This document shows, piece after piece, positions 5,158 to 59,299 of a DNA stretch of 64,000 nt. Under the pieces are notes generated by a model. The model made no database searches and was not told the origin of the DNA. It saw nothing but the letters and a program-made list of their open reading frames with translations. Made by a program: the position numbers and the translations under genes. Numbering within the stretch: the stretch's first letter is position 1; each line of letters opens with the position of its first letter. Source of the DNA: an uncultured Verrucomicrobia subdivision 3 bacterium (lineage in GTDB: Bacteria > Verrucomicrobiota > Verrucomicrobiia > Limisphaerales > UBA11358); the NCBI GenBank assembly GCA_903917705.1, contig CAIXBQ010000103.1:36889-100888 (forward strand), read 5' to 3'.

Positions 5158-5179
5158 GTGCAAGTAAAGTGCAAGTAAA
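5158..5179. repeat. 11-bp word duplicated in tandem (GTGCAAGTAAA x2)
   Basis: Read directly, 26 nt downstream of the tRNA. Confidence 0.9.
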
Positions 5180-5271
5180 TTAGGGTTTTTTGGAGGGCAC
5201 CGGATTTGCAGTCAACTGGCTCGGATTTCGACCGATTTGGACACATCATTTCGATTTTCAAGGAAGTTTTT

Positions 5272-5601
5272 TTAACCCGCCTCAGCCAAAATTTGAGCCA
5301 AACGACCAGTAAATCTAACGCCGGTTTTCGTTGGGATGGGTCGCTCGGTTTCCGGTTTGGGTGAGGGGGTATCAATGGTGGCTTTCAATCCGGTTTTGGC
5401 GTTACGCCATTGTACAAAGTCTTGCCAAAAAACAACGCCCGAGAAAGAGGGAAAACCCGGTTGTCGAAACCAGGCGCGAGCAGTGGAGTAGGAAACCCCG
5501 GTTAGCACCGCAAACTCCTTGGTGTTTAGCGCCTGATCCAAACGCCGCTTTTCAACGACTTGATCAAGGGCAACATTGAGCAGTTGCTTGTCGCGCGTCA
5601 T
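5272..5601 (-). CDS. Small helix-turn-helix DNA-binding protein (excisionase/MerR-like HTH)
   Basis: LNTKEFAVLTGVSYSTARAWFRQPGFP resembles excisionase-type HTH. The gene sits in a low-GC flank of the tRNA (5161-5220 = 27/60 GC). Confidence 0.55.
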   Translation of the reverse strand: MTRDKQLLNVALDQVVEKRRLDQALNTKEFAVLTGVSYSTARAWFRQPGFPSFSGVVFWQDFVQWRNAKTGLKATIDTPSPKPETERPIPTKTGVRFTGRLAQILAEAG

Positions 5602-5604
5602 GGA

Positions 5605-5877
5605 TCAAACCTTGGTTGTCGTTTCGTCAACGGCAGCTTTTGCAGCATCCACCAACCCGCGAAGCTGCCCATGCCGGTGCGCGAAGAACCAGACACCCAC
5701 GGCCGCGCCGACACCGCCCAAAATCAGAAGTTCATTCCCGACGATCAGCGACGGGAGAATCATCAAGGCGATGCCACCAACCAGAATCGCCGCGCTCGTC
5801 GTCACGCTGCCGATAATGAGCTTCAGGGGCGGATAAAAGATCGACGCTAGGCCGAATAGGAACATGGCCACGCCCAT
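5605..5877 (-). CDS. Small membrane protein (about 3 hydrophobic helices), unknown function
   Basis: Hydrophobic segments MFLFGLASIFYPPLKLIIG, AAILVGGIALMILPSLIVG and LLILGGVGAAVGVWFFA. Its stop is 3 nt from the HTH gene start. Confidence 0.5.
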   Translation of the reverse strand: MGVAMFLFGLASIFYPPLKLIIGSVTTSAAILVGGIALMILPSLIVGNELLILGGVGAAVGVWFFAHRHGQLRGLVDAAKAAVDETTTKV

Positions 5878-6056
5878 CCACCAGACCGGCGCCGGTCTCC
5901 TTGATGAGCGTAAGTGGCATAAAATTTTGGCCCGTCCGTGCTACGGACTCATGCAATGACTTCGAGGCCGAACCGCGCGAGGATCAGCCCTTTGAGCAGG
6001 TGCAAAGCGAACGCCTCAAAGAAAGGCGGGCGTAGCGCCGGACCAAGCCGTCCGGC

Positions 6057-6851
6057 TCAACCGGGCAGGTCCAGTGACGCGGCTTTGGCTGCTGCGCGGC
6101 GGGTGTAGGCGCCCCAGGCGAACCAGATGGCGATGAACAATACGACGGCGCCGAACAGGTAAAGCACCGTGTGCCCCAGGTCCTCTTTGCGCAAGCCGGA
6201 TCCAATCAGGACCATGGGCACGGCCTCGGGAAATAAGCCGAGGCTGGTGCCGAGGAAGAACTCGCGTCGGCGGATGGGCGAGAGGCCGAGCACGATGTTC
6301 GCGACCATCCCCGGAAGTGGAATCTGACGGAAGAGGATCACGGCAGGAACGGTGTTGTGCTTGAGTTTGGCGGCCAGTTTTTCCCAGGCGGGATGCTTGC
6401 GCAGGATCGTCTCCCGCCAGCCTAGTCGGCGCACGGCAAAGAAGACCACGCCGTAACCGATCATGGTGCCGAGGCAACTCCACAGCAAGCCGCCCCAAAA
6501 CGCGAACAGCGCCCCGCCCAGAAAATGAAACGCCAGCCGGGGCAGACCGCATCCCACCAGCACCGCCAGGCTCGCCGTGAACACCACCGGCGCCCACGGA
6601 CCGCAATCATGGATGAACTGTTTAAGGCGCGGCTGGTTGTCTGTGATGAAGTGCCGGACCGGCGGCAGCGAGGTCAGCACTCCCATCACCAGCAACGCGC
6701 CGAGCAGCAGCCCCGCCTGCTTGAAGACTCGGCGCTTGAACTGGGCCGCCGCCTCCGGCTGCGGGTTTGTGTCCGCCAACGCGTCGAGGCCGGCGGTTTC
6801 TTCATCGGCCGCCCGGGGGGCCGGGTTTGGGTTGTCGCTGGGTATCGCCAT
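6057..6851 (-). CDS. TVP38/TMEM64 (DedA-related, SNARE-associated) family membrane protein
   Basis: Multi-TM protein. FRQIPLPGMVANIVLGLSPIRRREFFLGTSLG matches the family signature region. Confidence 0.75.
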   Translation of the reverse strand: MAIPSDNPNPAPRAADEETAGLDALADTNPQPEAAAQFKRRVFKQAGLLLGALLVMGVLTSLPPVRHFITDNQPRLKQFIHDCGPWAPVVFTASLAVLVGCGLPRLAFHFLGGALFAFWGGLLWSCLGTMIGYGVVFFAVRRLGWRETILRKHPAWEKLAAKLKHNTVPAVILFRQIPLPGMVANIVLGLSPIRRREFFLGTSLGLFPEAVPMVLIGSGLRKEDLGHTVLYLFGAVVLFIAIWFAWGAYTRRAAAKAASLDLPG

Positions 6852-7018
6852 TCGTTTTAGTGATGGCGAACACGCTATGCGGCGGCCCGGCCGCAGGCAA
6901 TGGCAAATCGTTGGCCCCAGAGAAAAGACAATTGCGCCGTCAGAGACGGCCTTTCCCGAGGTGGAGTTGAGGCATGAGACAGAACGCGCGTTTGCGTGGT
7001 TGCATACGCGTGAGATTT

Positions 7019-7037
7019 ATCTGTCGGACCGACAGAT
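7019..7037. promoter_or_regulatory. 19-bp palindrome ATCTGTCGG-A-CCGACAGAT, candidate operator upstream of the OMP/glucanase operon
   Basis: Perfect 9-bp arms around one central base, about 240 nt upstream of the 7277 start. Confidence 0.35.
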
Positions 7038-7136
7038 GTCGTATCGCTGGAAGCAGTTTTTGGCTGGGTTTTGCCCTGAAGAAAATCTTGGTTCGCTAAG
7101 GAAATTACTAGGATATCTCGCGTGGCCGTTTCGATT

Positions 7137-7164
7137 GTTTGTTCATGACCGTTTGTTCATGACC
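7137..7164. repeat. 14-bp word duplicated in tandem (GTTTGTTCATGACC x2)
   Basis: Read directly. Confidence 0.9.
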
Positions 7165-7276
7165 GTTACAGTTTCATCTACTACGTGAAACAGGTTTGGC
7201 AAATGGGCAATATCTGGAAAGATCGTGCCAAAAGATGTTCATCGCATGCTCTCGTGAATTGGTAATTTGCATAAGC

Positions 7277-8626
7277 GTGAAACTGAAAATTGAATTATTC
7301 ATTGCCGGCGCCCTTGGAATGTTGTGTTTGGGTGTTTTGTCCGCGCATGCAGTGGAAAAAGTCGTCAATACCCCGCTGCAAAAGCCGGTATGGTTGACGG
7401 ATTGTTCCTTGGCCATAAAGGAAAGCTACGACAACAATGTATTTCTCTCCGGCGTGTATTCGAAATACCTTCCGGCTCCCTACACCGTGCCATCGGGCAG
7501 CGTGGCCGCGGTGAAAAATCTTTCTTCATGGGTCACCACTGTCTCGCCGAAGCTGGGCGTCAACTTTGCGCCGCTGCTGGGGGAGCAGAAAACGCTTCAA
7601 GTCTTGTCACTGGCGTATGCACCAGACCTTGCTGTGTATCACGACCAGGATTCGGAAAATTTTAATGCACATCGGTTTTTGGTCGCAATCAAGGTCCAAG
7701 CGGATCCGGTTTCGTTTGGAGCGGAAAACAGTTTCGTGTTTGTGGACGGCAGTCAATCAGGGCCATTTTATCCCAACGCCTTGTTAAGCGCCTTTGCCAC
7801 GTCAGCGGCGCGAGAACGGCGGGAGCAAATCATGGATCGGGCAAATATTTCGGTTCAGGTTGGCCAGAATCAGTGGTTTGTCCGGACCGTGGCGTCGCTG
7901 CTATATTATGACATGATGACGGATTTACGCAGTCTCAGCGGCTACCAGAATTACGCGGATCGCTATGACGTCAACGGTGGCGTTGATTTCGGATGCAAAA
8001 TCATACCGTCAATGGCGCTCACTCTGGGCTGGCGTTACGGCCATCAATATCAGGAGACATTTGCCTTCGACCCAAGTCATTACAGTTCGACTAGCGATTA
8101 TCAGCGCTTGCTGCTCGGCGTCGAGGGCAGACCGTTGAAATGGCTCGAAGTGAAAATTCAAAGCGGTCCGGATTTCCGCAATTACGGTGTGGCCGCGCCG
8201 GTGAACGACCGGCATCCGGTGAAGTATTACGGGGAGGCTCAATTGACGGCAACGCTCACATCGGCGGACACGCTGACCTTCAAGTGCAAGCAATGGCAAT
8301 GGGTTTCAATGCTCGGCAAGGCTCCGTTTTACGACAGCCTCTGCGACCTGACCTATCACCGCAGGGTCACGGATAAACTTGCCTTGGACTTGAGCGGGCG
8401 ACTGGAGTCATGGGATTATACCTCCGGCAACCTGTCTGCCTGCCAGCGGGACGATTGGCAATACACCGTTTCTGCTGGTTTGGGGTACAACGTCAGCCCG
8501 CACCTCGGCGTCAACCTAGGTTGCGTGTTGAACTTGGGTCGCAATAATCGTGACGGTCTGGCCAATTCGCAGACCCGTGAGTTTGATCAGCAGTTGGTTT
8601 CACTGGGAGCGCTGTGGAAATTTTGA
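7277..8626 (+). CDS. Putative outer-membrane beta-barrel protein
   Basis: A GTG start at 7277 gives the signal peptide VKLKIELFIAGALGMLCLGVLSAHA|VEK (the ORF track starts at 7196). Alternating amphipathic strands and a C-terminal ...SLGALWKF with terminal aromatic residue. Confidence 0.6.
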   Translation: MKLKIELFIAGALGMLCLGVLSAHAVEKVVNTPLQKPVWLTDCSLAIKESYDNNVFLSGVYSKYLPAPYTVPSGSVAAVKNLSSWVTTVSPKLGVNFAPLLGEQKTLQVLSLAYAPDLAVYHDQDSENFNAHRFLVAIKVQADPVSFGAENSFVFVDGSQSGPFYPNALLSAFATSAARERREQIMDRANISVQVGQNQWFVRTVASLLYYDMMTDLRSLSGYQNYADRYDVNGGVDFGCKIIPSMALTLGWRYGHQYQETFAFDPSHYSSTSDYQRLLLGVEGRPLKWLEVKIQSGPDFRNYGVAAPVNDRHPVKYYGEAQLTATLTSADTLTFKCKQWQWVSMLGKAPFYDSLCDLTYHRRVTDKLALDLSGRLESWDYTSGNLSACQRDDWQYTVSAGLGYNVSPHLGVNLGCVLNLGRNNRDGLANSQTREFDQQLVSLGALWKF

Positions 8627-19255: not shown

Positions 19256-19411
19256 AGCGGTAATCCCGGTTCGACCGGGGCAGATTAGAAAAACGGATTA
19301 GAAATGGGGCGAGGCGGCGACAGCGGCTCAAACGAGCACCCCCGGAAAAAGCATCAGACTGGAACAAGGGAAAAGCCTCATCCCATTTACGGTCAGCGGA
19401 TAGTGGGGGCC

Positions 19412-19473
19412 GGTTTTGGCGCTTTTTGGCGCGATTTGGCGTATTTTGGCGGCTTTTGGCACCCTGTTTTGGC
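19412..19473. repeat. Six T-tract iterons, G(C/G)nTTTTGGC; five are spaced exactly 10 bp apart
   Basis: TTGGC ends at 19420, 19430, 19440, 19450 and 19460, then at 19473. Confidence 0.9.
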
Positions 19474-19542
19474 GCGCGCCCGAATGGGGAAAGGCAGAAG
19501 GAAGAAGGCAGAATGTAGAAAGTGCGTGCCGCACGGGCCATC

Positions 19543-19580
19543 AATTGGCACGAATAGGAAAGGGTCAGAACCTTTACAAC
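19543..19580. repeat. Copy 1 of a ~38-bp direct repeat (AATTGGCRCGAATRGGAAAGGGTCAG..TTTAC)
   Basis: Matches 19771-19810 with a few substitutions. Confidence 0.8.
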
Positions 19581-19770
19581 TCCCCGGGTAAAAACTTTAT
19601 CGCTACCGTTTTCTTTACCACCCCAAGGCTCATCTTTTGTAAGTGCTTGATAGAGGTTAAAAAACTTTACCTTTTCTTTACCACTTTCATTTTTTGAGGG
19701 GTGGTAAAGCGGAAGGGTCGCGCGACGAAAGCGAAGGAGGCGAAGCGGAAAAGCAGACACAAATTGCCCG

Positions 19771-19810
19771 AATTGGCGCGAATGGGAAAGGGTCAGGGAT
19801 TTTACCAACA
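19771..19810. repeat. Copy 2 of the ~38-bp direct repeat
   Basis: AATTGGCGCGAATGGGAAAGGGTCAGGGATTTTACCAACA versus AATTGGCACGAATAGGAAAGGGTCAGAACCTTTACAAC. Confidence 0.8.
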
Positions 19811-19927
19811 ACTGGAGCAGGTTTTGCAAGTGGTTGATGGAATTTTCAAAATTTGACCGTTTCTTGACCCTGGCGAGGCATTTTTTGCACGGTCCGGTTT
19901 TCAGGAGGGGGTGGTGGCCGCGAAGAT

Positions 19928-19962
19928 GACATTTCGTGACATTTCGTGACATTTCGTGACAT
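19928..19962. repeat. 10-bp word GACATTTCGT x3 plus a partial fourth copy
   Basis: Units at 19928-37, 19938-47 and 19948-57, followed by GACAT. Confidence 0.95.
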
Positions 19963-20271
19963 GAATTTGAATTTTGCAACGCCAAGCGCATAGCCGGGAT
20001 GCAAAATTCATCGCCAAGACGCCAGGTGGAACCGGAGACTACGGACGTCAGACCACCGACCGGCGGGTGGCGATCCACGACGGGGCGACACCGGTTGGCA
20101 GACCGGTTAGATGCTGGCGGCACGGTAACCATGCGATATTATGGTCCGATGTTTCGGCGGATGCAAGAAAAATATCTGTACAATAATAATATCATACAAA
20201 CATAGTTGTTTTCATAATGCGGCAGCGTGAGCCTCCGAGGGCGGCCATGTGATTTTGAAAGGGGCGGCATA

Positions 20272-21072: not shown

Positions 21073-21082
21073 AAGGCAAAGC

Positions 21083-21161
21083 GGAAAGTGGAAAGTGGAA
21101 ACCGGCGACGGGAGCACCAAGGGAAAGACCGGTTCCCGAGGTCTGATGTCCGAGGTCCGAT
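21083..21161. repeat. Intergenic stuttered words (GGAAAGT x2 plus GGAAAC; CCGAGGTCTGAT / CCGAGGTCCGAT)
   Basis: Read directly in the 91-nt spacer between two minus-strand genes. Confidence 0.8.
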
Positions 21162-27782: not shown

Positions 27783-27795
27783 GGTCGGACGACAA

Positions 27796-27946
27796 AAACA
27801 GAGGTCAGAGATCAGCGGTCAGAGGTCAGACCGCAAGACTACGGACTACGGACCAAATCCGGAATGCGAAAAGCGAAAAGCGGAAGTTAAACACCAAGGC
27901 ACCAAGCATTTCTTAGCCACAGATGGGCATAGATGAAACACGGATT
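27796..27946. repeat. Chain of stuttered words in a convergent spacer
   Basis: Words: GAGGTCAGAG..GGTCAGAGGTCAGA (27796-27830), GACTACG x2 (27837-50), GCGAAAA x2 (27866-79), CACCAAGG/CACCAAGC (27892-27907), and TTAGCCACAGATGGGCATAGATGAAACACGGATT (27913-27946). Confidence 0.9.
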
Positions 27947-30870: not shown

Positions 30871-30989
30871 TGGCGGGGATAATTTAGCGGCAGAAAAGCG
30901 TCAGTGTCCATCGGCAATTAGTCAAAGCACCGGCTAGCCGCAACCATTTCCCACAGCTGCCCACCGACCCCTCGTGCCACAGAATATGT

Positions 30990-31023
30990 TTAGCCACAGA
31001 TGTGCACAGATGAAACACGGATT
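30990..31023. repeat. Second copy of the CACAGATG module (32/34 identical to 27913-27946)
   Basis: TTAGCCACAGATGTGCACAGATGAAACACGGATT. Confidence 0.9.
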
Positions 31024-31081
31024 GGAGACAACCGACAACGGACCTGAAACCTGCGGTTTAATCAAGACTACCCCAGGCAAC

Positions 31082-31111
31082 CCCGGACGGCGCAGCGCGA
31101 CCGTCCCTACC
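31082..31111. repeat. GGACGG-N10-CCGTCC hairpin module, copy 1
   Basis: CCCGGACGGCGCAGCGCGACCGTCCCTACC. Confidence 0.85.
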
Positions 31112-31166
31112 TAAGCAATGTCAACCCTGCGGCGCAGCACACCATCGACCAAAGCAAACATAATTC

Positions 31167-31195
31167 CCGGACGGCGCAGCGCACCGTCCCTACCA
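31167..31195. repeat. GGACGG-N9-CCGTCC hairpin module, copy 2
   Basis: CCCGGACGGCGCAGCGCACCGTCCCTACC, 85 nt from copy 1 in the same orientation. Confidence 0.85.
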
Positions 31196-31204
31196 TGCCG
31201 ATTG

Positions 31205-35503: not shown

Positions 35504-35757
35504 AATTTACTCCAAATTATTGTAGATACCGTTGCGTGACTGTGAAGATTCGAATGACTCTGATCCCGGTCGGTCGTGGCTGTGGAATGCGCCCGAAGCC
35601 CATAAAGCCACTGTTGCCGGCTGCCCAAACCATTAAATTAACGGCCCTTACACTCACGATACTATTACGAACATAAATAAGCCGCCGTGTCAACTATTTT
35701 TTGATCTTGCTTTCATGCCCGCAGTGACGGGGTTTGGATTGGTCGGCCCTCAATCCA

Positions 35758-35786
35758 TTGACGCTTCTTTTTCAACCAGCTAACTT
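35758..35786 (+). promoter_or_regulatory. Sigma70-like promoter candidate TTGACG-17 nt-TAACTT, only 7 nt before the rmlD-like ATG
   Basis: Hexamers at 35758-63 and 35781-86 with a 17-nt spacer. Would imply a leaderless or near-leaderless mRNA. Confidence 0.3.
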
Positions 35787-35793
35787 TGCGCGC

Positions 35794-36663
35794 ATGGAAA
35801 AAATTCTCGTCACCGGCGGCGATGGGCTGCTGGCGCATCAACTAAAAACCATCGCACCGGCCGGTTTTGAATTTTCATTTCTAGGCCGGGCGGAATTCGA
35901 CCTGACCCAAAAGGAATTGATGGCGCGGCGGCTGGCGGAACTGCGGCCGCAGGCGGTCATCAACACGGCCGCCTACAATCTGGTGGACCGCTGCGAAATC
36001 GAGCGCGACCTTTCCTGGGCGGTCAATGCCACGGGACCGGAAACGCTCGCCAGCCTGTGCGCGGAAAAAAACATCCGGCTGGTCCACTACGGGACGGACT
36101 ATGTTTTCGACGGCGCAAAAAAATCGCCCTATTCGGAGGCCGACGCGCCCCATCCGCTGAACCATTACGCCGCCGGGAAATCCGCGGGCGAGCAGGCGGT
36201 GCTCCGGGCCTCGCCGGAGCATCTGGTGCTGCGCACGAGCTGGGTGTTCGGCTGGCATCCGACGCAGACGAAATCCTTTGTCCACACGATTTTGCGGGCC
36301 GCGCGCGAGGGCCGCGCCTTGAAATCCACCACCGACCAGATTTCCGTCCCGACCTTCGCCCCGGATCTGGCGCAGTGGACCCTGGAACTGCTGCAGGGGA
36401 ATGCCGGGGGATTGTTCCACGCGGTCAACGATGAAGGCGTCAGCCGGTTTGACTGGGCGAAAATCATTCTGGAGGAAGCGGCCGGGGCCGGGCTGATTCC
36501 CGCCGCCCCGCCGGTTGAGCCGGTGCTGAGTTCGTTTTTCAACGCCACCATGCGCCGGCCGGATTACACGGTGCTCGACAACGGGAAACTGGTGAAGTCG
36601 GTGGGGCATCCCGCCGGGTCATGGCGCTCCGGCCTGAAGAAAATGCTCGCCCAGATGAAATGA
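35794..36663 (+). CDS. rmlD: dTDP-4-dehydrorhamnose reductase-like NDP-sugar 4-ketoreductase
   Basis: Start taken at MEKILVTGGDGLL (the ORF track starts at 35734). RmlD pattern: INTAAYNLVDRCE, HYGTDYVFDG and NHYAAGKSAGE. Confidence 0.75.
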   Translation: MEKILVTGGDGLLAHQLKTIAPAGFEFSFLGRAEFDLTQKELMARRLAELRPQAVINTAAYNLVDRCEIERDLSWAVNATGPETLASLCAEKNIRLVHYGTDYVFDGAKKSPYSEADAPHPLNHYAAGKSAGEQAVLRASPEHLVLRTSWVFGWHPTQTKSFVHTILRAAREGRALKSTTDQISVPTFAPDLAQWTLELLQGNAGGLFHAVNDEGVSRFDWAKIILEEAAGAGLIPAAPPVEPVLSSFFNATMRRPDYTVLDNGKLVKSVGHPAGSWRSGLKKMLAQMK

Positions 36664-36684
36664 TTTTGGGTAGTCTTCGCAAAC

Positions 36685-37200
36685 ATGTCCACTGTCTGGC
36701 AACCAGTTGAAGTTCGCGGAATTGTTGAGATTCCCGGGCTGCCGGGCGTGCGCGTGGAGGCGCTGCCGGTTTTCAAGGACGCGCGCGGCAGCCTGCATGA
36801 GCTGTTCCGCGTGGACGAAATCCCCGCCGGCTTTCAGCCGCTGATGGCCTGTTCCTCGTGGTCGCATCCGGGCGTGACGCGCGGGCCGCACCAGCACGTG
36901 GGGCAGGACGATTATTTCACGTTTGCCGGGCCATCCGATTTCACGGTTTATCTCTGGGATGACCGCCCCGGCGCGGCCGGCCCCGCCAAGGGCTGGTTCA
37001 TCAACACCGGCGAGCAGGCGCCGACGCGCATCCATGTCCCGCGCGGCGTGGTCCATGCCTATCGCAACACCGGAAGCGCTTTTGGCCTCGTGGTGACCGT
37101 CACCAGCCTGCTGTTCAAAGGCGCCGGCCGGCGCGATCCCGTGGATGAAATCCGCCACGAACTGAATCCGAATTCACCCTACCAACCCCCACCGATATGA
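36685..37200 (+). CDS. RmlC-like cupin (NDP-4-keto-6-deoxyhexose epimerase/isomerase family)
   Basis: FKDARGSLHELF, TRGPHQH and VPRGVVHAYRN in a cupin-sized protein. Confidence 0.65.
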   Translation: MSTVWQPVEVRGIVEIPGLPGVRVEALPVFKDARGSLHELFRVDEIPAGFQPLMACSSWSHPGVTRGPHQHVGQDDYFTFAGPSDFTVYLWDDRPGAAGPAKGWFINTGEQAPTRIHVPRGVVHAYRNTGSAFGLVVTVTSLLFKGAGRRDPVDEIRHELNPNSPYQPPPI

Positions 37201-38444
37201 TCCAAGAACGCACCCATTGCCGCACCTGCGGCTCGAAAAACCTCAAGCTCATCCTCGACCTCGGCAAGACGGCGCTGGTGAATGATTTTCTCAAGCCGGA
37301 GGAAGTGGCCAATTACAAAATCTCCCTGCCGCTGCGCGTGGTGCTTTGCCCGGACTGCTCGCTGGTGCAGCTTGGCGACACGGTGGATCCCAAAATCCTC
37401 TATTCGCACTACGCGTACGTCACCTCCACCTCCAAGACGATGGATACGCATCTGGACAACATGATGTCGCACCTGCTGGCGACGGCCCGGCTCGGGTCCG
37501 GCTCGAAGGTGCTGGAGATTGCGTCGAACACCGGCGTGTTCCTGAAAAAGTTCAAGGAGCAGGGCTGCGAAGTGCTGGGCGTGGAGCCGGCCGGCAACAT
37601 CGCCGATGTGGCCCTGGCCACGGCCATCCCTACGCGCAAGGAATTTTTCAACGCGGCCACCGCGAAAAAGCTGCGGGCCGAGTGGGGCGCGGCGGATCTG
37701 ATCATGGGTCGCCATGTGTTCGCGCACATCGACGACCTGCGCGACCTGGTGGCAGGGCTGGAGGCGATTTCGCATGCGGACACCCTGATCGCGTTTGAGG
37801 TTCCGTACGTGGTGGACTTCTTTGAGCACACGGAATACGACACGATTTATCACGAGCATCTGTCCTACATTTCCATCCGCGCGGTCGAGGCGCTGGTGAA
37901 GGATTCGGCGTTTATGGTGTCGCGCGTGGATCATTATCCCATCCATGGCGGCTCGATTTTATTCCATCTGCGGCATCGTTCCTCCAAAGCCGTGCCGCAT
38001 GCGAGCGTGGCGGCGGCGCTGGAAAAGGAAAAGCAGATGAAGCTGGCCGAGCCGGCGACCTGGGAGGCTTTCGCGCAGCGCGTGAACCACATCCGCACCG
38101 AACTGCCCGCGCTGCTGCGCAAATTGAAGGCGCAGGGCAAGCGCATCATCGGCTACGGGGCGTCGGCGAAGGGCAACACGCTGCTGAACACCTGCGGCCT
38201 GAGCACGAAGGAACTGGACTACATCATCGACAACACGCCGTTCAAGCAGAACAAGATCGCGCCCGGCTCGTGGATCCCGGTGCGGCCGCCGGAAATGCTG
38301 CTGAAGGACCAGCCGGATTACGCGCTGCTGCTGGCGTGGAATTTTGCGCCGGAAATCATCAAGCGCGAGACGGAATTCCAGAAGCGCGGCGGCCGTTTCA
38401 TTGTGCCGATACCGGAGCCGAAGATTGTGGAGCCGGCGGCGTAG
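37197..38444 (+). CDS. NDP-hexose C-methyltransferase-like SAM-dependent methyltransferase (TylCIII/C-methyltransferase family)
   Basis: N-terminal 4-Cys zinc ribbon (CRTCGS...CPDCSLVQL), a class I SAM fold (VLEIASNTGVF) and a C-terminal C-methyltransferase-type domain. The start overlaps the upstream stop (ATGA). Confidence 0.7.
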   Translation: MIQERTHCRTCGSKNLKLILDLGKTALVNDFLKPEEVANYKISLPLRVVLCPDCSLVQLGDTVDPKILYSHYAYVTSTSKTMDTHLDNMMSHLLATARLGSGSKVLEIASNTGVFLKKFKEQGCEVLGVEPAGNIADVALATAIPTRKEFFNAATAKKLRAEWGAADLIMGRHVFAHIDDLRDLVAGLEAISHADTLIAFEVPYVVDFFEHTEYDTIYHEHLSYISIRAVEALVKDSAFMVSRVDHYPIHGGSILFHLRHRSSKAVPHASVAAALEKEKQMKLAEPATWEAFAQRVNHIRTELPALLRKLKAQGKRIIGYGASAKGNTLLNTCGLSTKELDYIIDNTPFKQNKIAPGSWIPVRPPEMLLKDQPDYALLLAWNFAPEIIKRETEFQKRGGRFIVPIPEPKIVEPAA

Positions 38445-38480
38445 GGAAAAGGGGCAAAGCGAAAATCGGAAATATAAAGA

Positions 38481-38630
38481 GTTGGCAGTCGTCAGTTGGC
38501 AGTTGGCAGCAAATGCGGGACCAACGGACCGCGGACCGGGACCAAGACCTGAAGGGGGCAAAGGGGAAAGTGGAAAGGGGGCGTGCGAAGAGGGCGGGAG
38601 GCAGGAGGCAGGAGTTAGGAGTTTGGAGCG
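38481..38630. repeat. Chain of stuttered words in a convergent spacer
   Basis: GTTGGCAGTCGTCAGTTGGCAGTTGGCAGC; GGGACCAACGGACCGCGGACCGGGACCAAGACC; GGGGAAAGTGGAAAGGGG; GGAGGCAGGAGGCAGGAGTTAGGAGTTTGGAG. Confidence 0.85.
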
Positions 38631-38724
38631 AGAAGGGGCAGGCCCAGGACCGCAAAGCGGCTAGAATTGCACAAACCTCAAAATGGCCGGGAAGCGGCCG
38701 GTGTGGCAACGGTTCGCCAATGTT

Positions 38725-39834
38725 TTACTCGGTGCAGAGGGACTGAATCTCCGGGGCAGAGAGCGCCCGGTTGTAGATGCCAATCTCGTCCATCGCTCCT
38801 GAAAACACGCTTCTCGGATTGGCCACGGAGCCGTAAGTTGTCCGGGCACCAAACAGTAAATAAGGAAAGCTCGTTTGAGGAACTATGCTTCCGACGTTCG
38901 CCTGCGCTTCTACGGTTCCGTTGAGATACAACGAGGCTGCCCCGGATGCTTTATCATAGGAGAAGGCAACATGTTGCCAAATGCCAGGAATCAACAGGTC
39001 CGGTCGTGAAACAAATGTATGGCCGGTTCCGTTGTCAGCATCCAGAACATTGGCACACAGGTGCCACCCGCCTGATCCATCAACTTGTTGTATGGTAAAA
39101 TCGATCCCGACATCTGAACCATTCGCTGTCCCAAGTATTCTCTCATATTCAGCAATGATGGTCTCCGTTATTGATGTTGCCGGCTTAAGCCACGCTACGA
39201 TGGTAAATCCGTCTCCCGCCCCGATGTTCAAGACTGGTTTGGTGGGAACGAGCAGAAAGGCTCTACCCCGACTAAATCTGGCATCCGGGAACCCGGTGCC
39301 CCTGCCACTTTCATTCAGGCTGAATGCCTGACCAACTTTGCCCGGGGTGAAACCGGCCCCGTTGACCAGTTGCCCGTGGCAACCGCCCACGCTGTCTTCG
39401 GCGTTGCCCTCGCCCGACCAGAGCGCCACCAGACCTTCCAGCGTCCGGCCCGGATGCCCCGGGGCGGATACCGACAGATGCCGGATGGCAGCCACCGGCA
39501 ACTCCACTTTGCCGAAGCCGGTGATGACGCGCAGTTCGGAATTCACGAACCGGACGGTCAAGACGTCGCCATTGGCGGTTGTCAATTTTGCCGAGTTGGT
39601 CGCGCCAAACTCAACAGTTCGCATGTCTTTCACCGCCAGTTTCAATTCGCCCAGAAGCAATGATTGAAATTTGAACGTGTCTTCCGCGGTTTGCCCGACA
39701 ACCCGCGAGCCGTCCCGCAGATCAATGGTCAGCCGGGCGGCGGATTCCTTGGAGTCGGCGGGAGCCGCCGGGACGGAATGGAGGCCAAACGCAAAGATAC
39801 AAAACGCGCAGAGATAACCCAGAAAGCCTTTCAT
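38725..39834 (-). CDS. Secreted LamG/concanavalin-A-like lectin domain protein
   Basis: Signal peptide MKGFLGYLCAFCIFAFGLHSVPA. The C-terminal half has LamG-type features: WQHVAFSYD, LYLNG and the terminal MDEIGIYNRALSAPEIQ. Confidence 0.7.
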   Translation of the reverse strand: MKGFLGYLCAFCIFAFGLHSVPAAPADSKESAARLTIDLRDGSRVVGQTAEDTFKFQSLLLGELKLAVKDMRTVEFGATNSAKLTTANGDVLTVRFVNSELRVITGFGKVELPVAAIRHLSVSAPGHPGRTLEGLVALWSGEGNAEDSVGGCHGQLVNGAGFTPGKVGQAFSLNESGRGTGFPDARFSRGRAFLLVPTKPVLNIGAGDGFTIVAWLKPATSITETIIAEYERILGTANGSDVGIDFTIQQVDGSGGWHLCANVLDADNGTGHTFVSRPDLLIPGIWQHVAFSYDKASGAASLYLNGTVEAQANVGSIVPQTSFPYLLFGARTTYGSVANPRSVFSGAMDEIGIYNRALSAPEIQSLCTE

Positions 39835-39906
39835 AATGGTTTGAATCTGTGTCCGGCCGCCCGGACAGTCAAGCGGATTAAGCCATTTTAGTCACAGATG
39901 GCTACA

Positions 39907-39940
39907 AAACAGAGGTCAGAGATCGGAGGTCAGAGGTCAG
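39907..39940. repeat. Second copy of the GAGGTCAGAG module (about 32/35 identical to 27796-27830)
   Basis: AAACAGAGGTCAGAGATCGGAGGTCAGAGGTCAG, preceded by TTAGTCACAGATGGCTACA, a partial CACAGATG module. Confidence 0.9.
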
Positions 39941-40036
39941 CAAACCATGAAAGCGGAAAGTGTGTGCCACACGGGCAACCCCTAAAACACGAAAGCAGAA
40001 ATTCACTACCAAGGGGCGAAAATGCTAAGAACACGG

Positions 40037-40068
40037 ACAACTGACAACTGACGACTGACGACTGACGG
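40037..40068. repeat. 7-bp stutter ACAACTG x2, ACGACTG x2
   Basis: Read directly. Confidence 0.9.
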
Positions 40069-40201
40069 CTATAACGAACTCAAAACTTGAAATCCGAAAC
40101 TCCCAAGGGACTGCGGTCTGGGTTTATTTCGGATTTCCGTTTTGGTTTTGCTCCGGTAAAGTTCGCGGATGTCATCTGTCCGTCCCAACTCCGGCGAAGC
40201 C

Positions 40202-41269
40202 ATGAAGCAGGTCGTGCTGCTGGTGGGCATCGGCAACAATGACCGGGGTTCCGCGCAACTTGCCTCCGCCTTCGGCCGCGCGGTGCTGATGCAGGATGCC
40301 TACATCGAGCATCGGGAAATCTGGGAGCGGGGCCAGCGGGTGTTCAACGGCCCGGAAACCAAAATCCAACAGCCCCGCCTGGTGGGGGAGCTGACCTTCG
40401 GGCTGTTTTCCGCCTTGCGGATCCTGAAAAGATACCGCGCGGACATGGCCGGACAATCCTGCGACCTGGTCATCACGAGCGCCTATGTCCAGACCGTGGT
40501 CGGCCTCTGGCTGCGGGCCACCGGCAAAACGCGCAAGGTGGTCTGCGTGATCTCCGATTACCTGCCGCCCCGGGGCCGGCTGATCGTGCGGATACACCGC
40601 CGCATCACCGGCGGGCTGACGCGGCTGGTGGCGCGGCTGGCCGATGAAGTCTGGGCGGTTTCGCCGCGGATTCCGACCGCCCGGGCCAACCCGCGGAATT
40701 TCGTCATGCCGTTGCTGATTGACAACAACCGCACGCTGCCGGACGGTCGCGATGAGATCGGCTACATCGGGTTTCCCTCGCCGGACCATGCGCTGGACGT
40801 GCTGTTTGAGATCTGCCGCAAGCATGGGTTCAAGCTGAATGTGTTCGGGGATTCACCGTATCTGCAGTCCATCCGGCCGCTGGCGCCGCCCGGCACGGTT
40901 TTTCACGGGATCACCAACGACAATGTGAAGATCGGCAGCGTGCTCGCGCGCTGCTTCTGCGGCTATGCGGTGTATCGGGACACCAGCCCGAACAGCTACA
41001 GCCACTACGGGATACCGTCGAAGTGCCTCCAGCTTTTTGCGAGCAACGTGCCGGTGGTGACGACCAACACGGCGCATTTCACCCAATACATCGCGCAGTC
41101 CGGCGCGGGCTGCGTGGTGGAGCCGGCACCGGCGGAAATTGAAAAAGCCGTGCTCGACATCCGGGCGCGCTTTCCCGTCTATTACGAGGCCATCAACCGC
41201 TTTCGCGAAACCTGGAACGCCGGCGTGGAAAAATTTCATCACGAGCGAATCGGCGGGTTATTGAAGTAA
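40202..41269 (+). CDS. Putative divergent GT-B-fold glycosyltransferase
   Basis: Start taken at MKQVVLLVGIG. The C-terminal GIPSKCLQLFASNVPVVTTNTAHFTQYIAQSGAGCVVEP resembles the GT4 donor-binding region with the acidic residue substituted. The assignment is weak. Confidence 0.45.
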   Translation: MKQVVLLVGIGNNDRGSAQLASAFGRAVLMQDAYIEHREIWERGQRVFNGPETKIQQPRLVGELTFGLFSALRILKRYRADMAGQSCDLVITSAYVQTVVGLWLRATGKTRKVVCVISDYLPPRGRLIVRIHRRITGGLTRLVARLADEVWAVSPRIPTARANPRNFVMPLLIDNNRTLPDGRDEIGYIGFPSPDHALDVLFEICRKHGFKLNVFGDSPYLQSIRPLAPPGTVFHGITNDNVKIGSVLARCFCGYAVYRDTSPNSYSHYGIPSKCLQLFASNVPVVTTNTAHFTQYIAQSGAGCVVEPAPAEIEKAVLDIRARFPVYYEAINRFRETWNAGVEKFHHERIGGLLK

Positions 41270-42415: not shown

Positions 42416-42619
42416 ATCCCAGACCTCCCGCCCTTTTGGCGGGTAGGGTGGGAAGATTCGTGTTTCTGGTAAGCGAGTGGCCCCGCGAGCCGCGCCTTAC
42501 GGCGGGTCACCTTGGGGGAACCGGCTCGCGAGTACGCTCCCCCACCGCACCTGGTGGATGGCCACCTTCAGGCAATCCTAGCCCGCCGTGGGTGAGGCAT
42601 GGCAACCGGACGGCTCGGT

Positions 42620-42649
42620 GGTAGGGACGGCACGCAGCGCGCCGTCCCC
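42620..42649. repeat. GGACGG/CCGTCC hairpin module, copy 3, in inverse orientation
   Basis: GGTAGGGACGGCACGCAGCGCGCCGTCCCC, compared with the reverse complement of 31082-31111 (GGTAGGGACGGTCGCGCTGCGCCGTCCGGG). Confidence 0.75.
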
Positions 42650-42721
42650 ACCGACTCCGGTTTTCGGGTCAAACCCCGTGTGCGACGTGATTGACTTGCG
42701 CGGGGGAAAGCTTATTTTGTC

Positions 42722-45049: not shown

Positions 45050-45077
45050 GTTGAAGGTTGCAAGTTGAAGGTTGCAG
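45050..45077. repeat. 14-bp word duplicated in tandem (GTTGAAGGTTGCAA / GTTGAAGGTTGCAG)
   Basis: Read directly, 10 nt after the feoB stop. Confidence 0.9.
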
Positions 45078-45078
45078 G

Positions 45079-45119
45079 TTTAGCGGTTTGGTGGCTTTGC
45101 CTTCGGATATCCGATTCCC
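45079..45119. repeat. Solitary unit resembling the 41-bp array unit of 45-491
   Basis: TTTAGCGGTTTGGTGGCTTTGCCTTCGGATATCCGATTCCC has the TTTAGCGG..GGTGGC head, an internal palindrome CGGATATCCG (45103-45112) and a TTCC tail. Confidence 0.55.
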
Positions 45120-52356: not shown

Positions 52357-52390
52357 AAGGCGTCCGGCAACGGACGCCTTTTTTGTTTTT
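52357..52390 (+). terminator. Rho-independent terminator of rpsB-tsf
   Basis: Perfect 10-bp stem AAGGCGTCCG-GCAA-CGGACGCCTT followed by TTTTGTTTTT. Confidence 0.88.
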
Positions 52391-56766: not shown

Positions 56767-57303
56767 TCAAAACGGCGAGGCGAAATCGCGGAGCGCGGGG
56801 AATCGGGTGTCGCGCGCAGACAGGACGGGGTTCGTCACCGGCCAGTCGAAACCGAAGCTGTCCCAGCGCACCCCGGCGTCGTGCGCCGGCGAATGGACGG
56901 AGCTGGTCTGATAAACCATCGTCGCGCCGTCCGCCAGCGCCAGGAAGCCGTGGGCGAAACCGGCGGGGATGAAAAACATTTCGCGGTTGGCGGCGCTTAA
57001 TTCGCGCGCGCAACTGCGGCCGAACGACGGGGAATTTTTCCGCAGGTCCAGCACGACATCCAGGACGCTGCCGGCGATGCAATAAACCAGCTTCGCATGG
57101 GCGGCCGGCGGCAGTTGGAAGTGCATCCCGCGCAAGACGCCTTTCGCCGAGGTGGAGAAAAATTCCTCGCGCGGCTCGAAGTCCAGGCCGCGTTCGCGAA
57201 ACCGGTCGCGGTGAAAGGTTTTGACGAAGCTGCCGCGCCCGTCCCGGAATATGGGGGGACGGATCAGTTGCAGGCCGGGCAGTTCAGTCGGGACGAGTTC
57301 CAT
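56767..57303 (-). CDS. RmlC-family NDP-4-keto-6-deoxyhexose 3,5- (or 5-) epimerase
   Basis: FRDGRGSFVKTF, LRGMHFQ, KLVYCIAGSVLDVVLDLR and FIPAGFAHGF. Confidence 0.8.
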   Translation of the reverse strand: MELVPTELPGLQLIRPPIFRDGRGSFVKTFHRDRFRERGLDFEPREEFFSTSAKGVLRGMHFQLPPAAHAKLVYCIAGSVLDVVLDLRKNSPSFGRSCARELSAANREMFFIPAGFAHGFLALADGATMVYQTSSVHSPAHDAGVRWDSFGFDWPVTNPVLSARDTRFPALRDFASPF

Positions 57304-57306
57304 GCG

Positions 57307-58716
57307 TCAATGGCTTTTAACGAAGCGGCGGATGGTGTCCACCATGTAATCCAGCATGGCCGGCGTCAGGCCGGGATAAGTGCCCACGAACACCGCCTCG
57401 TTCATGATACGATCCGCCCCGGCCAGGTCGCCGACAACGCGAAAGGCGCCGGGCGACTGCCGCCGCAGGGTGACGAACGCCGGCTGGCGGACCAGATTGC
57501 CGCCGAACAGCATCCGGTTGCCAATCTTCGCCCCGTCGAGGTGTTTGACGAATTCGGTGCGCGTGAACGGCGCGCTGCTTCTGACGAGCATCATGAAGCC
57601 GAACCAGGAGCACTCCGTCCGGTGGCCGGACGGATCCCAAGTAAAACCCTGCGGCGACCAGGCGGTGGCGTGCGTCGGCAGCTGGAACTGGAAAAATTCC
57701 TCCAGTCCGGCGAGCGCCGCGCGGAGATAATCCCAGTTGTCCATGCGCGCCTGGATGAACGCGGGCAACTTCTTCAACTGCTGCCGGCCAATCGCCGCCT
57801 GCGGGTCGAGCGGCTTCAGGTTGTAGCCGAGATGCGAATAAATGTATTTGTGGTCGTAGCCGGCGGGCAGTTCGCCGAGCTGCCAGCCGAAGCGCTTGTG
57901 GCAGGTGTCGTCCTTGCCGCTCGGACACCAGCAGTCGCGGCCCCAGTCGCGGAAACTTTCGGCCAGCACCTTCAATTTCATGTCGCGCACCACGTTCACC
58001 GCGCCGCCTTCGCCCATCGTGAGGTGATGCGGCGGATAAAAGCTCTGCGTGGAAAGGTCGCCGAACGTGCCGGTGAATTTCCCGTCATAGCGGCAGCCGA
58101 GCGCGTCGCAGTTGTCCTCGATCAGCCAGAGGTTGTGCCGGCGGCAAAAATCCGTGGTGGCCGCGAGATCGAAAGGGTTGCCGAGCGTGTGCGCCATCAT
58201 CACGGCCTTGGTTTTGCCGGGCGCGAAAGCGGCGGCCAGCTGGTCGGCGCGGCCGTTCAGCGTGGCCGGGTCGTTGTCGATGAACACCGGCACGCAGCCG
58301 CTCTGTAAAATCGGCGCGACGGTCGTGGGAAAACCGGCGGCGACCGTGATGACCTCGTCGCCGGGGCGGAGCTGGCGGTCACCGAGCTTCGGGCTGGTGA
58401 GCGCGGCCAGGGCGACGAGATTGGCGGAGGAGCCGGAGTTGACGAGGATGGATTTTTTGACGCCGAGCAGCGCGGCGAGCTCGGTTTCAAAGGCGTCGCC
58501 TTCGGGGCCGAGCGTCAGCCAGAAATCCAGCGTGGCGGAAACGGCGGCCTCCACTTCGTCTTCGGTGAACACGCGGCCCGCATAAGGCACGGTGGTCTGG
58601 CCGGGGACAAAGGCGGGGCGCCGGGGATCCGCGCCGGGCCGGTTGGCGGCGTGGGTGGCGGCGGAGAACTCGCGGGTGAGGCGGAGGATTTCGGCTTTGA
58701 TTTCAGCGGGATTCAT
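57307..58716 (-). CDS. ddhC: CDP-6-deoxy-L-threo-D-glycero-4-hexulose-3-dehydrase (E1, RfbH/DdhC)
   Basis: Near end-to-end resemblance to Rfb[15 protein letters not shown] has His where aminotransferases carry the PLP Lys (nt 58027-58029). The Fe-S motif C-x-C-x7-[13 protein letters not shown], lies at nt 57901-57933. Confidence 0.88.
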
Positions 58717-58733
58717 TTTATCAGGGAAATTTT

Positions 58734-58816
58734 ACCATGAAGGGCATGGAGGATATGAAGGGTTTTTAAGGGATTTTTCCAGCTTTAGGCTTCAGGTTCC
58801 TCATGTTCTTCATGGT
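58734..58816. repeat. Left hairpin of the GxxExxY cassette (ACCATGAAG...CTTCATGGT)
   Basis: Arm ACCATGAAGGGCATGGAGGATATGAAGG (58734-61) and arm CCTCATGTTCTTCATGGT (58799-816). Confidence 0.8.
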
Positions 58817-58819
58817 GGA

Positions 58820-59194
58820 TTAATTCAAGAAACTCCTCAAACCATCCTTGAGCAACCGGACGTTGAAGTTGATCAGCAAACCCTGTTTGAGTTTTGCCAG
58901 CTTGAGATAGCTGATGATCTGGGCTTCGTGGATGGGATGGACTTCATCCACGCTCTTGAGTTCCAGCAAAAGGGAATCCGCCACAACCATGTCCATGCGA
59001 TAGGCGCAGTCAATCGTCATGCCCTTGTATTCAAAAGTGAGCGGAGCCTGCCGGCGGAAGGGGGTGTTGCAAAGTTCCAGTTCCCGGCACAGGCAGGCCT
59101 CATAGGCCGACTCCAAGAGTCCGGGGCCAAGGACCTTGTGAACTTCAATGGCAGCACCGATAACCTGGGAAACCAGCGGATTATCTTTTAACAT
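58820..59194 (-). CDS. GxxExxY-family protein (PD-(D/E)XK-like fold)
   Basis: LGPGLLESAYEACL is the GxxExxY motif; 124 aa, the typical family size. Confidence 0.85.
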   Translation of the reverse strand: MLKDNPLVSQVIGAAIEVHKVLGPGLLESAYEACLCRELELCNTPFRRQAPLTFEYKGMTIDCAYRMDMVVADSLLLELKSVDEVHPIHEAQIISYLKLAKLKQGLLINFNVRLLKDGLRSFLN

Positions 59195-59206
59195 AAAACG
59201 GATTTA

Positions 59207-59299
59207 ACCATGAAGAACATGGAGGACATGAAGAAATTACCTGAGTGATTCTGGAAAGCCCGTTTTCCCTACCTTCATGTGCTTCATGCTCTTCATGGT
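59207..59299. repeat. Right hairpin of the GxxExxY cassette (27-nt arms, 24/27 complementary)
   Basis: ACCATGAAGAACATGGAGGACATGAAG (59207-33) pairs with CTTCATGTGCTTCATGCTCTTCATGGT (59273-99). Confidence 0.85.

Follow-up and report, generated by a model that had tools for sequence, protein, structure and literature searches.

The intergenic spacers of a 64,000-nt stretch of DNA from an uncultured Verrucomicrobia subdivision 3 bacterium (contig CAIXBQ010000103.1, positions 36,889–100,888; this whole stretch is called the window, and is numbered from its first nucleotide) contain short tandem arrays of 7–14-nt words. On balance these stuttered arrays are best regarded as parts of intervening-sequence-like cassettes, whether arms, hairpins without a gene or solo remnants, accompanied by ordinary repetitive extragenic palindromes (REPs) tagged with GTAG. 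In this arrangement the main class, comprising 2–5 tandem copies of a 7–14-nt word and typically 25–35 nt in length, would be the arm sequences of miniature cassettes, each cassette being a small gene bracketed by two mutually reverse-complementary arrays. Genes for four-helix-bundle (S23p) proteins would have heptamer arms and GxxExxY genes 9–10-mer arms. The elements would take three forms, i.e. arms around a gene, back-to-back gene-less segmented hairpins of 60–110 nt, and solo arms, with the arms at the borders of DNA that has been inserted between conserved genes. They would change quickly by slippage of whole units, and probably also by conversion between copies.

The closest precedent is the 23S rRNA intervening sequence of Coxiella burnetii, a 428-nt selfish element with an S23p (four-helix-bundle) open reading frame (ORF) (PMC4990558). 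The inverted repeats at its termini pair into a 28-bp stem that is cleaved by RNase III, and its 5′ arm comprises 3–4 tandem heptamers GACAGAT just before the start codon, the number differing between strains (PMC4990558). By analogy, where both arms of a cassette are transcribed they would form an imperfect duplex of ~28–33 bp, and an RNase III cut within the operon could then excise or insulate the transcript of the inserted cassette. Such processing of the paired arms is the most likely molecular action.

Tandem arrays in the spacers

The gene map of the window was curated from ORFs, Pfam matches and gene calls, leaving a non-coding share of 13.3%. Arrays were called with Tandem Repeats Finder. 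Thirteen of the 14 period-7 arrays are non-coding, to be compared with the 13.3% share (binomial p = 4.8e-11), as are 22/32 of the arrays with a period that is not a multiple of three (binomial p = 8e-13). The spacers contain 25 arrays, where first-order Markov resamples of the same spacers give 2.2 ± 1.6, so that the arrays exceed chance. At every site where a first-pass annotation of this DNA had placed an array one was called, together with several that it had not listed. It had described the spacers as consisting largely of such words; the arrays are present, but this is an overstatement for the spacers at 5158 (22 of 921 nt) and 7137 (31 of 344 nt). Arrays occur in every type of spacer, as it had said, with 71 co-directional, 17 divergent and 14 convergent cases in the 116 loci used as the comparison set for array context. 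Its remark that hairpin-plus-T-tract terminators are mostly missing also holds for the array-rich spacers of the window, where there are none. A clean hairpin-plus-T terminator follows tsf (52357–52380), so the genome does use such terminators.

The lengths of the period-7 arrays are bimodal, with a sharp mode at 30–33 nt (25/71) and one longer case. The mode lies near the length of the 28-bp stem of the Coxiella intervening sequence. All 13 non-coding period-7 arrays of the window (19491–45080) are purine-rich on the + strand (0.52–0.93), whatever the orientation of the flanking genes. A replication-strand bias was considered and rejected; the + strand of the window has positive GC skew, yet no correlation with local skew was found (rho = 0.06, p = 0.52; 115 arrays, 116 loci). 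A transcribed-strand bias was likewise discarded, since the arrays of co-directional spacers are pyrimidine-rich on the sense strand in 37 cases and purine-rich in 31 (p = 0.68). A CAG core common to all the heptamer words was also dismissed, being present in ~11/53 units by our own count, roughly the chance rate.

Genes bracketed by reverse-complementary arrays

The GxxExxY gene of the window (58820–59194, − strand) encodes a 124-aa PD-(D/E)XK protein (PF13366, E = 2.9e-39; TIGR04256, E = 1.6e-40) and is located between two segmented hairpins, the arms of which are three CATGAAGNN units each. The hairpin downstream of the gene (58726–58822) folds with −27.4 kcal/mol as the minus strand and −39.7 kcal/mol as the plus strand (z = −5.9 and −6.4), and the upstream hairpin (59198–59307) with −38.6 and −42.8 kcal/mol (z = −5.4 and −6.2); 9-mer arrays were called at 58790, 59209 and 59273. 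The outer CATGAAGNN arms are predicted in silico to pair across the gene, with −34 to −49 kcal/mol. The hairpins of CATGAAGNN 9-mers constitute the arms of a GxxExxY gene cassette, and the suggestion that the arrays might be associated with cassettes of this type has proved to be real, in that GxxExxY genes bear such arrays.

Orthologues with 82–88% identity occupy the same dehydratase|DegT junction in other species, and homologues with 66–69% identity are found in unrelated contexts. The ends of all of these genes have CATGAAGNN or GTGAAGNN arrays (TTTACCATGAAGnnCATGAAG and/or CTTCATGnnCTTCATGGTAAA, or GTGAAG variants). Outside Verrucomicrobia the word differs while the design is the same, with CACAGATGNN in KSB1, a CGCAGAGGNN hairpin in Gemmatirosa and CACAGAGANN / TCTCTGTGNN in Bernardetia; the Sphingomonas gene has a CGCGAAGNN array on the upstream side only. 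Arrays of 9–10-mers adjoin GxxExxY genes in every context examined, in five phyla. In locus L128 extra arrays are joined to C-terminal fragments of GxxExxY genes, beside an intact gene. Here two ORFs of 43 aa (L128 2075–2206 and 2897–3028) consist of MKSMKDMK, the translated CATGAAG array, followed by the last ~35 residues of a GxxExxY protein; they are truncated copies of the cassette, stacked next to the intact gene.

The second cassette gene is found in related loci. In L005 a four-helix-bundle gene (7020–7433; TIGR02436) occupies exactly the interval from the stop codon of prfA to the start of the gene that follows, with (CCAGAAG/TCAGGAG)n on one side and the complement of this array on the other. 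TIGR02436 denotes the ‘23S rRNA intervening sequence protein’ family, to which the retroelement protein Avd is related. Three orthologues at the same site (L140–L142, 78–87% identity) keep the heptamer arms while the individual units differ, and L017 has an unrelated four-helix-bundle copy with AAGGAGT-type arms. A plasmid protein search with the four-helix-bundle query gave 27 records with up to 73% amino acid identity to the protein from Verrucomicrobia, almost all from heterocystous cyanobacteria. On plasmids of Nostoc sp. ATCC 53789, N. punctiforme and Trichormus variabilis (L143–L145) a 5′ arm of (TCAGGAG/TCAGAAG)×4.6–5.0 ends 3–5 nt before the start codon of the four-helix-bundle gene, and the complementary arm (TTCTGAC/TCCTGAC)×3.4–4.7 runs over the stop codon; these arrays comprise 3.4–5.0 units and 24–35 nt. 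In the four-helix-bundle cassettes the heptamer arrays end 3–5 nt before the start codon or overlap it. The arm words of the Nostoc and Trichormus plasmids match those of the verrucomicrobial four-helix-bundle cassettes. The L005 protein and those of L143–L145, i.e. of Verrucomicrobia and Nostocales, are 66–73% identical, and this together with the shared arm words suggests that the cassette as a whole was transferred between phyla. Every cassette seen has protein-coding genes on both sides, and none is in 23S rRNA.

The calculated duplexes of arm segments have −31 kcal/mol in L017 and −37 kcal/mol in L005 (−37.4), and longer windows give −42 to −59 kcal/mol for L005, L140–L142 and L143–L145. 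The outer-arm duplexes of the window GxxExxY cassette, of the LamG block described below and of L005 have z values of −3.5 to −9. Duplex energy over 110-nt gene ends was tried as a control statistic and is uninformative in G+C-rich DNA (background median −48 kcal/mol), so it was replaced by a count of ungapped inverted matches. Nine of 18 cassette genes have at least 20/24 inverted matches between their ends, compared with 2/611 other genes of the same loci (Fisher p = 6e-14, calculated from all 18 contexts). A strict tandem array is present at one or both ends of 10/18 cassette genes and of 43/611 other genes (p = 2e-7, on the same basis).

Recurring modules, insertion sites and turnover

Several arrays recur as modules within the window. 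AAAA(CAGAGGT)×4.6, with GTCAGRR-type words, is located at 27795–27830 (+ strand; array 27799–27830), and a second copy with ×4.4 at 39906–39940 (+ strand). As had been noticed, 27795–27829 and 39906–39940 correspond, with 94% identity over 35 nt. The same imperfect CAGAGGT array with the same variant units is thus present 12 kb apart with unrelated flanks; arrays related to this module occur in L092. The description of miniature intergenic elements is borne out to the extent that they are discrete, the same imperfect arrays being found at distant sites with unrelated flanks. Aligned without gaps by our own count, the window (GGTCAGA)n module (27799, 39910) agrees with the Nostoc 5′ arm (AGTCAGR)n at 24/32 positions, with an invariant GTCAG core.

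The CACAGATGNN (CACAGATG) module is 34 nt long and is built from three 10-nt units. Its two solo copies in the window, at 27913–27946 and 30990–31023 (both − strand), fit the 34-nt pattern exactly, with 0 matches in 100 shuffles. The first lies in a convergent spacer with its outer end GGCTAA facing left, and the second within the FG-GAP insertion described below, ~50 nt from the left edge, this copy having its outer end toward the start of the GT1 gene at 30870. What had been called a partial copy at 39886 is a remnant of just ~13–15 nt, comprising one unit (GCCATCTGTGACTAAAAT, 39886–39900, − strand) 52 nt upstream of the LamG start codon. The copies at 19518 and 39956 of a further module match as reported, differing by a C-G to T-A double change within GTGCG...CGCAC. 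This change is suggestive of a small hairpin in GAAAGTGYGTGCCRCACGGGC, but the candidate was rejected because its fold is no better than that of shuffled sequences (z about 0). The repeat of GCGGAAAGTG does have two copies; the second is at 39953 and not 39952, and the match is marginally unusual (3/100 shuffles).

A census of the 34-nt module was made by a pattern scan with one genome per species, some of the bin labels being clearly unreliable. The module was found in 46 loci, mostly Verrucomicrobia and also in bins labelled Planctomycetes, KSB1, Acidobacteria and Chloroflexi. The arrays had been thought lineage-specific, and this does not hold, as the CACAGATG module spans several phyla and GTCAGRR heptamer words are found on Nostoc plasmids as well. 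In the KSB1 locus L022 the module adjoins a GxxExxY gene. A direct association with GxxExxY was discarded as a general rule for the 46 loci, as it is seen in the KSB1 locus only and most copies there are solo or hairpin forms. In ~10 loci the module is followed by its imperfect complement, giving hairpins with stems of 8–10 bp separated by internal loops of 2–3 nt. The distance from the GGCTAAA end to the neighbouring gene is no more than 31 nt in 20/43 cases, compared with 4/44 for the other end (p = 0.002), a polarity expected of the outer end of an inserted element. The module is kept upstream of hisH in four genomes and of recF in three. Its sequence was not found in the literature searched.

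A promoter-like sequence TGGACA-18-TAAATT (30881–30910, − strand) ends 10 nt before the GT1 start codon (30870), and in relatives TAAATT or TAAAAT is located 6 nt before the GTG of hisH and recF. In this lineage leaders may commonly be very short or lacking.

The array-rich spacers of the window are the flanks of two insertions, which were compared with 78 related loci. In relatives the GT1 and RmlD genes are usually divergent neighbours ~95 nt apart, and the methyltransferase and GT1b genes are adjacent, ~60 nt apart. The FG-GAP/Ig block (~30930–35770, gene 31205–35503, − strand) is missing in relatives, its junction having been compared with L049, and at least 14 relatives lack the LamG block (~38445–40170, gene 38725–39834, − strand). 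In the latter block the outermost arrays, AGTTGGC×4.3 on the left (38480–38509) and GACAACT/GACGACT×4.6 on the right (40036–40067), are reverse complements of each other; their calculated duplex has −34.5 to −40.4 kcal/mol with z about −6. L049, the sole relative that shares LamG, has quite different spacer words, including a hairpin with ~32-nt TAATCC/TAATCG arms. The FG-GAP/Ig/dockerin and LamG genes are lineage-specific insertions into the GT1|RmlD-p171-methyltransferase-GT1b-GT2 operon backbone, which is conserved apart from them and lies on the opposite strand.

The arrays turn over rapidly. Among four near-identical contigs (L131–L134), which have 17 variable columns over 5.4 kb, the (GGAAAGC)n array varies by exactly one 7-nt unit. 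Fused genes for RluA pseudouridine synthase and S-adenosylmethionine methyltransferase contain an in-frame 32–33-nt heptamer array just before methyltransferase motif I (L027 643–674, L033 5787–5819, L039 6405–6436). One species has GATTGCG in all of its units and two others have GATTTCC, with equal copy number; the array encodes SAIRNPQSAI in one species and SEIGNRKSEI in another. A CATGAAG array in two close relatives differs mainly at the variable dinucleotides. Taken together, the unit indel, the concerted change of word and the dinucleotide differences indicate that slippage and homogenization act on the arrays. With the (GGAAAGC)n indel (columns 4297–4303 of L131–L134) the DegT call is 519 aa in three contigs and 422 + 95 aa in the fourth, and thus slippage of an array can alter the 3′ end of a neighbouring ORF. 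More widely, gene callers turn stuttered arrays into spurious ORFs and false N- and C-terminal extensions.

Further arrays are distributed along the window. GTGCAAGTAAA×2 (5158–5179) begins 26 nt downstream of tRNA-Gly (5059–5132), the 14-mer GTTTGTTCATGACC×2.2 (7137–7167, 31 nt) is located 29 nt upstream of an ORF starting at 7196, and GTTGAAGGTTGCAA×2.2 (45050–45080, 31 nt) begins 11 nt after the feoB stop codon. Three arrays were not listed in the first-pass annotation: TTTTGGCGCN×4.7 (19414–19460), AAGGCAG×3.3 (19491–19513), which is followed by the module GAAAGTGCGTGCCGCACGGGC to make a block of 19491–19538, and a perfect TGACATTTCG×3.6 (19927–19962). The first lies within a gene-poor stretch of ~1 kb (19256–20271), where no convincing gene was found; a 298-aa ORF there has no Pfam match and a G+C content of 0.53 at third codon positions. 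Besides three arrays this stretch contains a single copy of the GAAAGTG module and, at 19543 and 19771, a 35-nt direct repeat with a distance of 228 nt between its copies. AAAGTGG×3.4 (21078–21101) and CCGAGGT×3.6 (21136–21160) fill the 91-nt spacer separating two minus-strand genes (21078–21160 in all). GACTACG×2.4 (27837–27853) and GCGAAAA×2.4 (27866–27882) together occupy 27837–27882. Four solo heptamer arrays, CGGACCG×2.9, GAAAGGG×4.1, GGCAGGA×3.1 and AGGAGTT×2.7, follow one another at 38525–38628, and the second copy of the GCGGAAAGTGTGTGCCACACGGGC module is at 39953–39976.

The GGACGG hairpins, which recur at three sites as had been described, are GTAG-tagged REPs, a known superfamily, and make up a minor class of the window elements. 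On the appropriate strand they read GTAG-GGACGG-loop-CCGTCC. A terminal GTAG tag is the defining mark of the largest superfamily of REPs, members of which have been reported from Opitutus and Rhodopirellula (PMC3733652). Membership was judged by an unpaired GTAG (or GYRG-type) end tag, a stem of 6–13 bp with a short or structured loop, and a total length of 20–40 nt; the window hairpins have the tag, stem and length of such elements. The first (31083–31111, − strand) folds with −14.7 kcal/mol (z = −3.1), the second (31167–31194, − strand) is head-to-tail with it, and the third (42617–42652, + strand) has a GTAG tag on one strand and GTGG on the other. The stems GGACGG/CCGTCC are 6–7 bp, with folds of −13.1 to −14.7 kcal/mol. 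GTAGGGACGG is found at 31101–31110 (−), 31184–31193 (−) and 42621–42630 (+), with the GTGG variant at 42642–42651 (−). The three copies in 64 kb are all extragenic, and in ~1 Mb of related loci there is only a loose match, in L018. The elements of the window had been presented as one family. They fall into at least four classes: GTAG REPs, GxxExxY 9–10-mer arms, four-helix-bundle heptamer arms and arrays that cannot be assigned, the last including those at 5158–5179, 7137–7167, 27837–27882 and 38525–38628.

The window has ~60% G+C. It encodes housekeeping functions (carA, rpsB, tsf, feoAB and one tRNA-Gly), polysaccharide synthesis (many glycosyltransferases, RmlD, a C-methyltransferase and DegT) and the large FG-GAP/Ig and LamG proteins, and its relatives are Verrucomicrobia genome bins (subdivision 3, Limisphaerales) and peat and soil metagenomes. 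A contig from another sample is 100% identical to the window over 31063–40651, and the repeats are consequently no artefact of assembly. This sole other contig being identical, no strain polymorphism was seen in the window's own spacers. A search of the window with Rfam returned tRNA-Gly alone, with no rRNA or other known RNA family. A 41-nt unit that contains internal palindromes (ATTGTAAGCTTACAAT, GGAAATGACC...GGTCATTTCC) is present in about ten copies, which fill 75–490, upstream of a minus-strand ORF (600–1256); their architecture is unlike that of the short-word arrays. Unrelated dispersed repeats in L028 (900–3020) and in the window (42420–42560) are read through as ORF fragments containing ...LDCGGRALAATPLSRA... 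and ...ESGVALRFPPQS.... The start of the longest GT1b ORF (40169–40201) is probably wrong; orthologues begin with MKQ(I/V)V, placing the start at 40202.

Alternative explanations and related elements

A number of observations weigh against the cassette interpretation. About half of the window arrays have neither a partner in the window nor a match in ~1 Mb of related DNA (GACTACG, GCGAAAA, CGGACCG, GAAAGGG, AGGAGTT, AAAGTGG, CCGAGGT, TTTTGGCGC, TGACATTTCG, and the 11- and 14-mers). No four-helix-bundle gene or remnant and no second GxxExxY remnant was detected in the array-rich spacers of the window with the GxxExxY profile and the four-helix-bundle query. The 18 cassette contexts are partly orthologous; ~12 are judged independent, and six of these pass the inverted-match test. 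In some cassettes (L138, L022) the flanking arrays are in direct and not in inverted orientation. The arm duplexes are not systematically stabler on the sense strand of the enclosed gene (3/10 pairs favour sense), giving no positive sign of selection on mRNA folding. The cassette genes examined are stable at orthologous sites, with no recent jump, transposition or excision event caught. We infer that the solo arrays of the window descend from cassette arms, by analogy for about half of them, and that the elements are, or have been, mobile and able to spread.

If the arrays were simply neutral repeats of long unit that slip in place, with the heptamer as the favoured step and with no mobility, partner or function, then the one-unit polymorphism among near-identical contigs and the concerted word change in all units of an orthologous array would be explained. 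An intergenic excess of heptamers in bacteria is documented and has been ascribed to polymerase slippage (PMC4692102), and most of the heptamer words found in the window are confined to it. As the complete account this is nevertheless doubtful. The same variant-unit array recurs 12 kb apart with unrelated flanks and in other species, the CACAGATG module is nearly identical across phyla, reverse-complement pairs bracket particular gene families far more than other genes, and the lengths peak at 30–33 nt with no steady fall-off; slippage is accordingly part of the favoured explanation, not the whole of it. It is improbable that the arrays and hairpins are DNA transposons of the REPIN type or like miniature inverted-repeat transposable elements, moving as single-stranded hairpins mobilized in trans by RAYT, or perhaps by the GxxExxY nuclease, with no RNA processing. 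No RAYT or other transposase was found among the ~45 window proteins scanned, the arrays lack the GTAG tag, neither a target-site duplication nor an empty site was documented, and the cassettes sit stably at orthologous positions; moreover a 124-aa PD-(D/E)XK protein is not known to act as a transposase. Such elements would fit with the presence of GTAG-tagged REPs (PMC3733652), the gene-less two-arm hairpins of L001, L016 and the window, a nuclease gene between its own repeats as in RAYT/REP (PMC3116915), arms with no sense-strand preference, the several arrays and truncated GxxExxY fragments of L128, which look like repeated insertion at one site, and the spread across phyla.

A regulatory role, either as promoter or 5′-leader elements like TAACTGA or as Rho-dependent terminators or insulators in place of hairpin terminators, is very unlikely. 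The reverse complement of CACAGATG ends in GCTAAAAT/GCTAAATT, and upstream of hisH and recF the module lies 8–31 nt from start codons that have no Shine–Dalgarno sequence. The CAACTGA/CGACTGA array at 40036 is one base from TAACTGA (PMC4679880), the array-rich spacers lack intrinsic terminators, and the minus strand of 38445–38724 is C-rich and G-poor. As a promoter or leader, the first reading made of it, the module was rejected; it scores poorly against sigma-70, its outer end abuts gene ends as well as starts (18 vs 25), one copy (27913) is in a convergent spacer, and a distinct promoter-like site is found in the interval from the 30990 copy to its gene. No enrichment of sigma-70 promoters or intrinsic terminators, and no match to either, was found on the window modules. 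The distance to the start codon varies from 2 to >100 nt, and the downstream genes have no common function. That the arrays of the 71 co-directional spacers are biased neither to purines nor to pyrimidines on the sense strand argues against Rho loading sites or leader elements.

Under the cassette interpretation the elements, whose function had been left unnamed, can be classed as intervening-sequence-like cassette arms plus REPs; on the spreading mechanism the earlier reservation stands. A wider proposal is speculative and rather unlikely: that S23p/Avd-like and GxxExxY cassettes form one ancient horizontally spreading class with the rRNA intervening sequences as its best-known landing site, that the unexplained heptamer and 8–11-mer arrays of large genomes (those of Verrucomicrobia and Planctomycetes, the short tandemly repeated repetitive sequences or STRRs of cyanobacteria, and TAACTGA in Beggiatoa) stem from its solo arms and gene-less hairpins, and that its proteins spread or maintain the element by acting on the duplex of the arms or on the hairpin. 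Intergenic heptamer arrays (STRRs, Xanthomonas GGGAATC and Beggiatoa TAACTGA) have been catalogued since 1990 with no accepted origin or function, and the window and its relatives offer a testable link, since the same words form the paired arms of two widespread small gene families, each with at least 8,000 protein-search matches. If it holds genome-wide, the link would account for a large share of the ‘junk’ spacer DNA of Verrucomicrobia, Planctomycetes and Cyanobacteria; the arrays would mark the insertion points of accessory genes in operons, and would be a candidate substrate for the four-helix-bundle and GxxExxY proteins. No general link of heptamer arrays or STRRs with either cassette was found in the literature searched.

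The STRR heptanucleotide sequences of heterocystous cyanobacteria, with the three named words CCCCAGT, TTGGTCA and CAACAGT (STRR1–3), were reportedly described by Mazel et al. in 1990, a study cited in PMC4692102. They resemble the window arrays in the many different heptamer words, the short tandem intergenic arrays and a function that was never explained, and the GTCAGRR words of the window's module recur in the arms of the four-helix-bundle cassettes that Nostoc and Trichormus plasmids carry. The host here, in contrast, is a verrucomicrobium of 60% G+C with verrucomicrobial gene content and related loci, and the STRR1–3 words and their complements are absent among the window units. The window arrays are capped near 33 nt, while cyanobacterial ones reach dozens of units (PMC4692102, PMC4679880). 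TAACTGA direct repeats occur in Beggiatoaceae, Cyanobacteria and Bacteroidetes and were proposed as translational control sites in Beggiatoaceae (PMC4679880), and the GGGAATC repeats of Xanthomonas have mostly four units (PMC4692102). These too are intergenic heptamer arrays of 2–6 units, some in inverted pairs and patchy across phyla, and the window has CAACTGA/CGACTGA×4.6 (40036–40067). One word dominates there and many are found here; TAACTGA lies a few nucleotides from start codons, whereas the window array is 135 nt upstream of the GT1b start at 40202, and the G-quadruplex explanation is inapplicable to words without G runs.

With GTAG REPs and REPINs (PMC3733652, PMC3116915) the GGACGG hairpins share the GTAG tag, the G+C-rich 6–7-bp stem and the extragenic location, and two of them form a head-to-tail dimer. 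A cassette gene between its own repeats is also reminiscent of a RAYT gene flanked by REPs (PMC3116915). The stuttered arrays differ from GTAG REPs in being untagged, with arms of tandem words and periodic internal loops rather than simple palindromes, and the window has no RAYT gene. Compared with the 23S rRNA intervening sequences of Coxiella and Leptospira (PMC4990558), the elements here are located in spacers of protein-coding operons and not in helix 9, 25 or 45 of 23S rRNA. The window cassette encodes a GxxExxY nuclease and has 9-mer arms, the S23p ORF being found only in related loci; most window arrays are gene-less or solo, and RNase III cleavage, known for Coxiella, is here conjectural. 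The likenesses are the protein family, encoded in the related loci by a small ORF as well, inverted repeats of ~28–33 nt at the ends that form, or are predicted to form, a stem, tandem heptamers of variable number in the 5′ arm before the start codon, and a sporadic distribution that points to horizontal spread.

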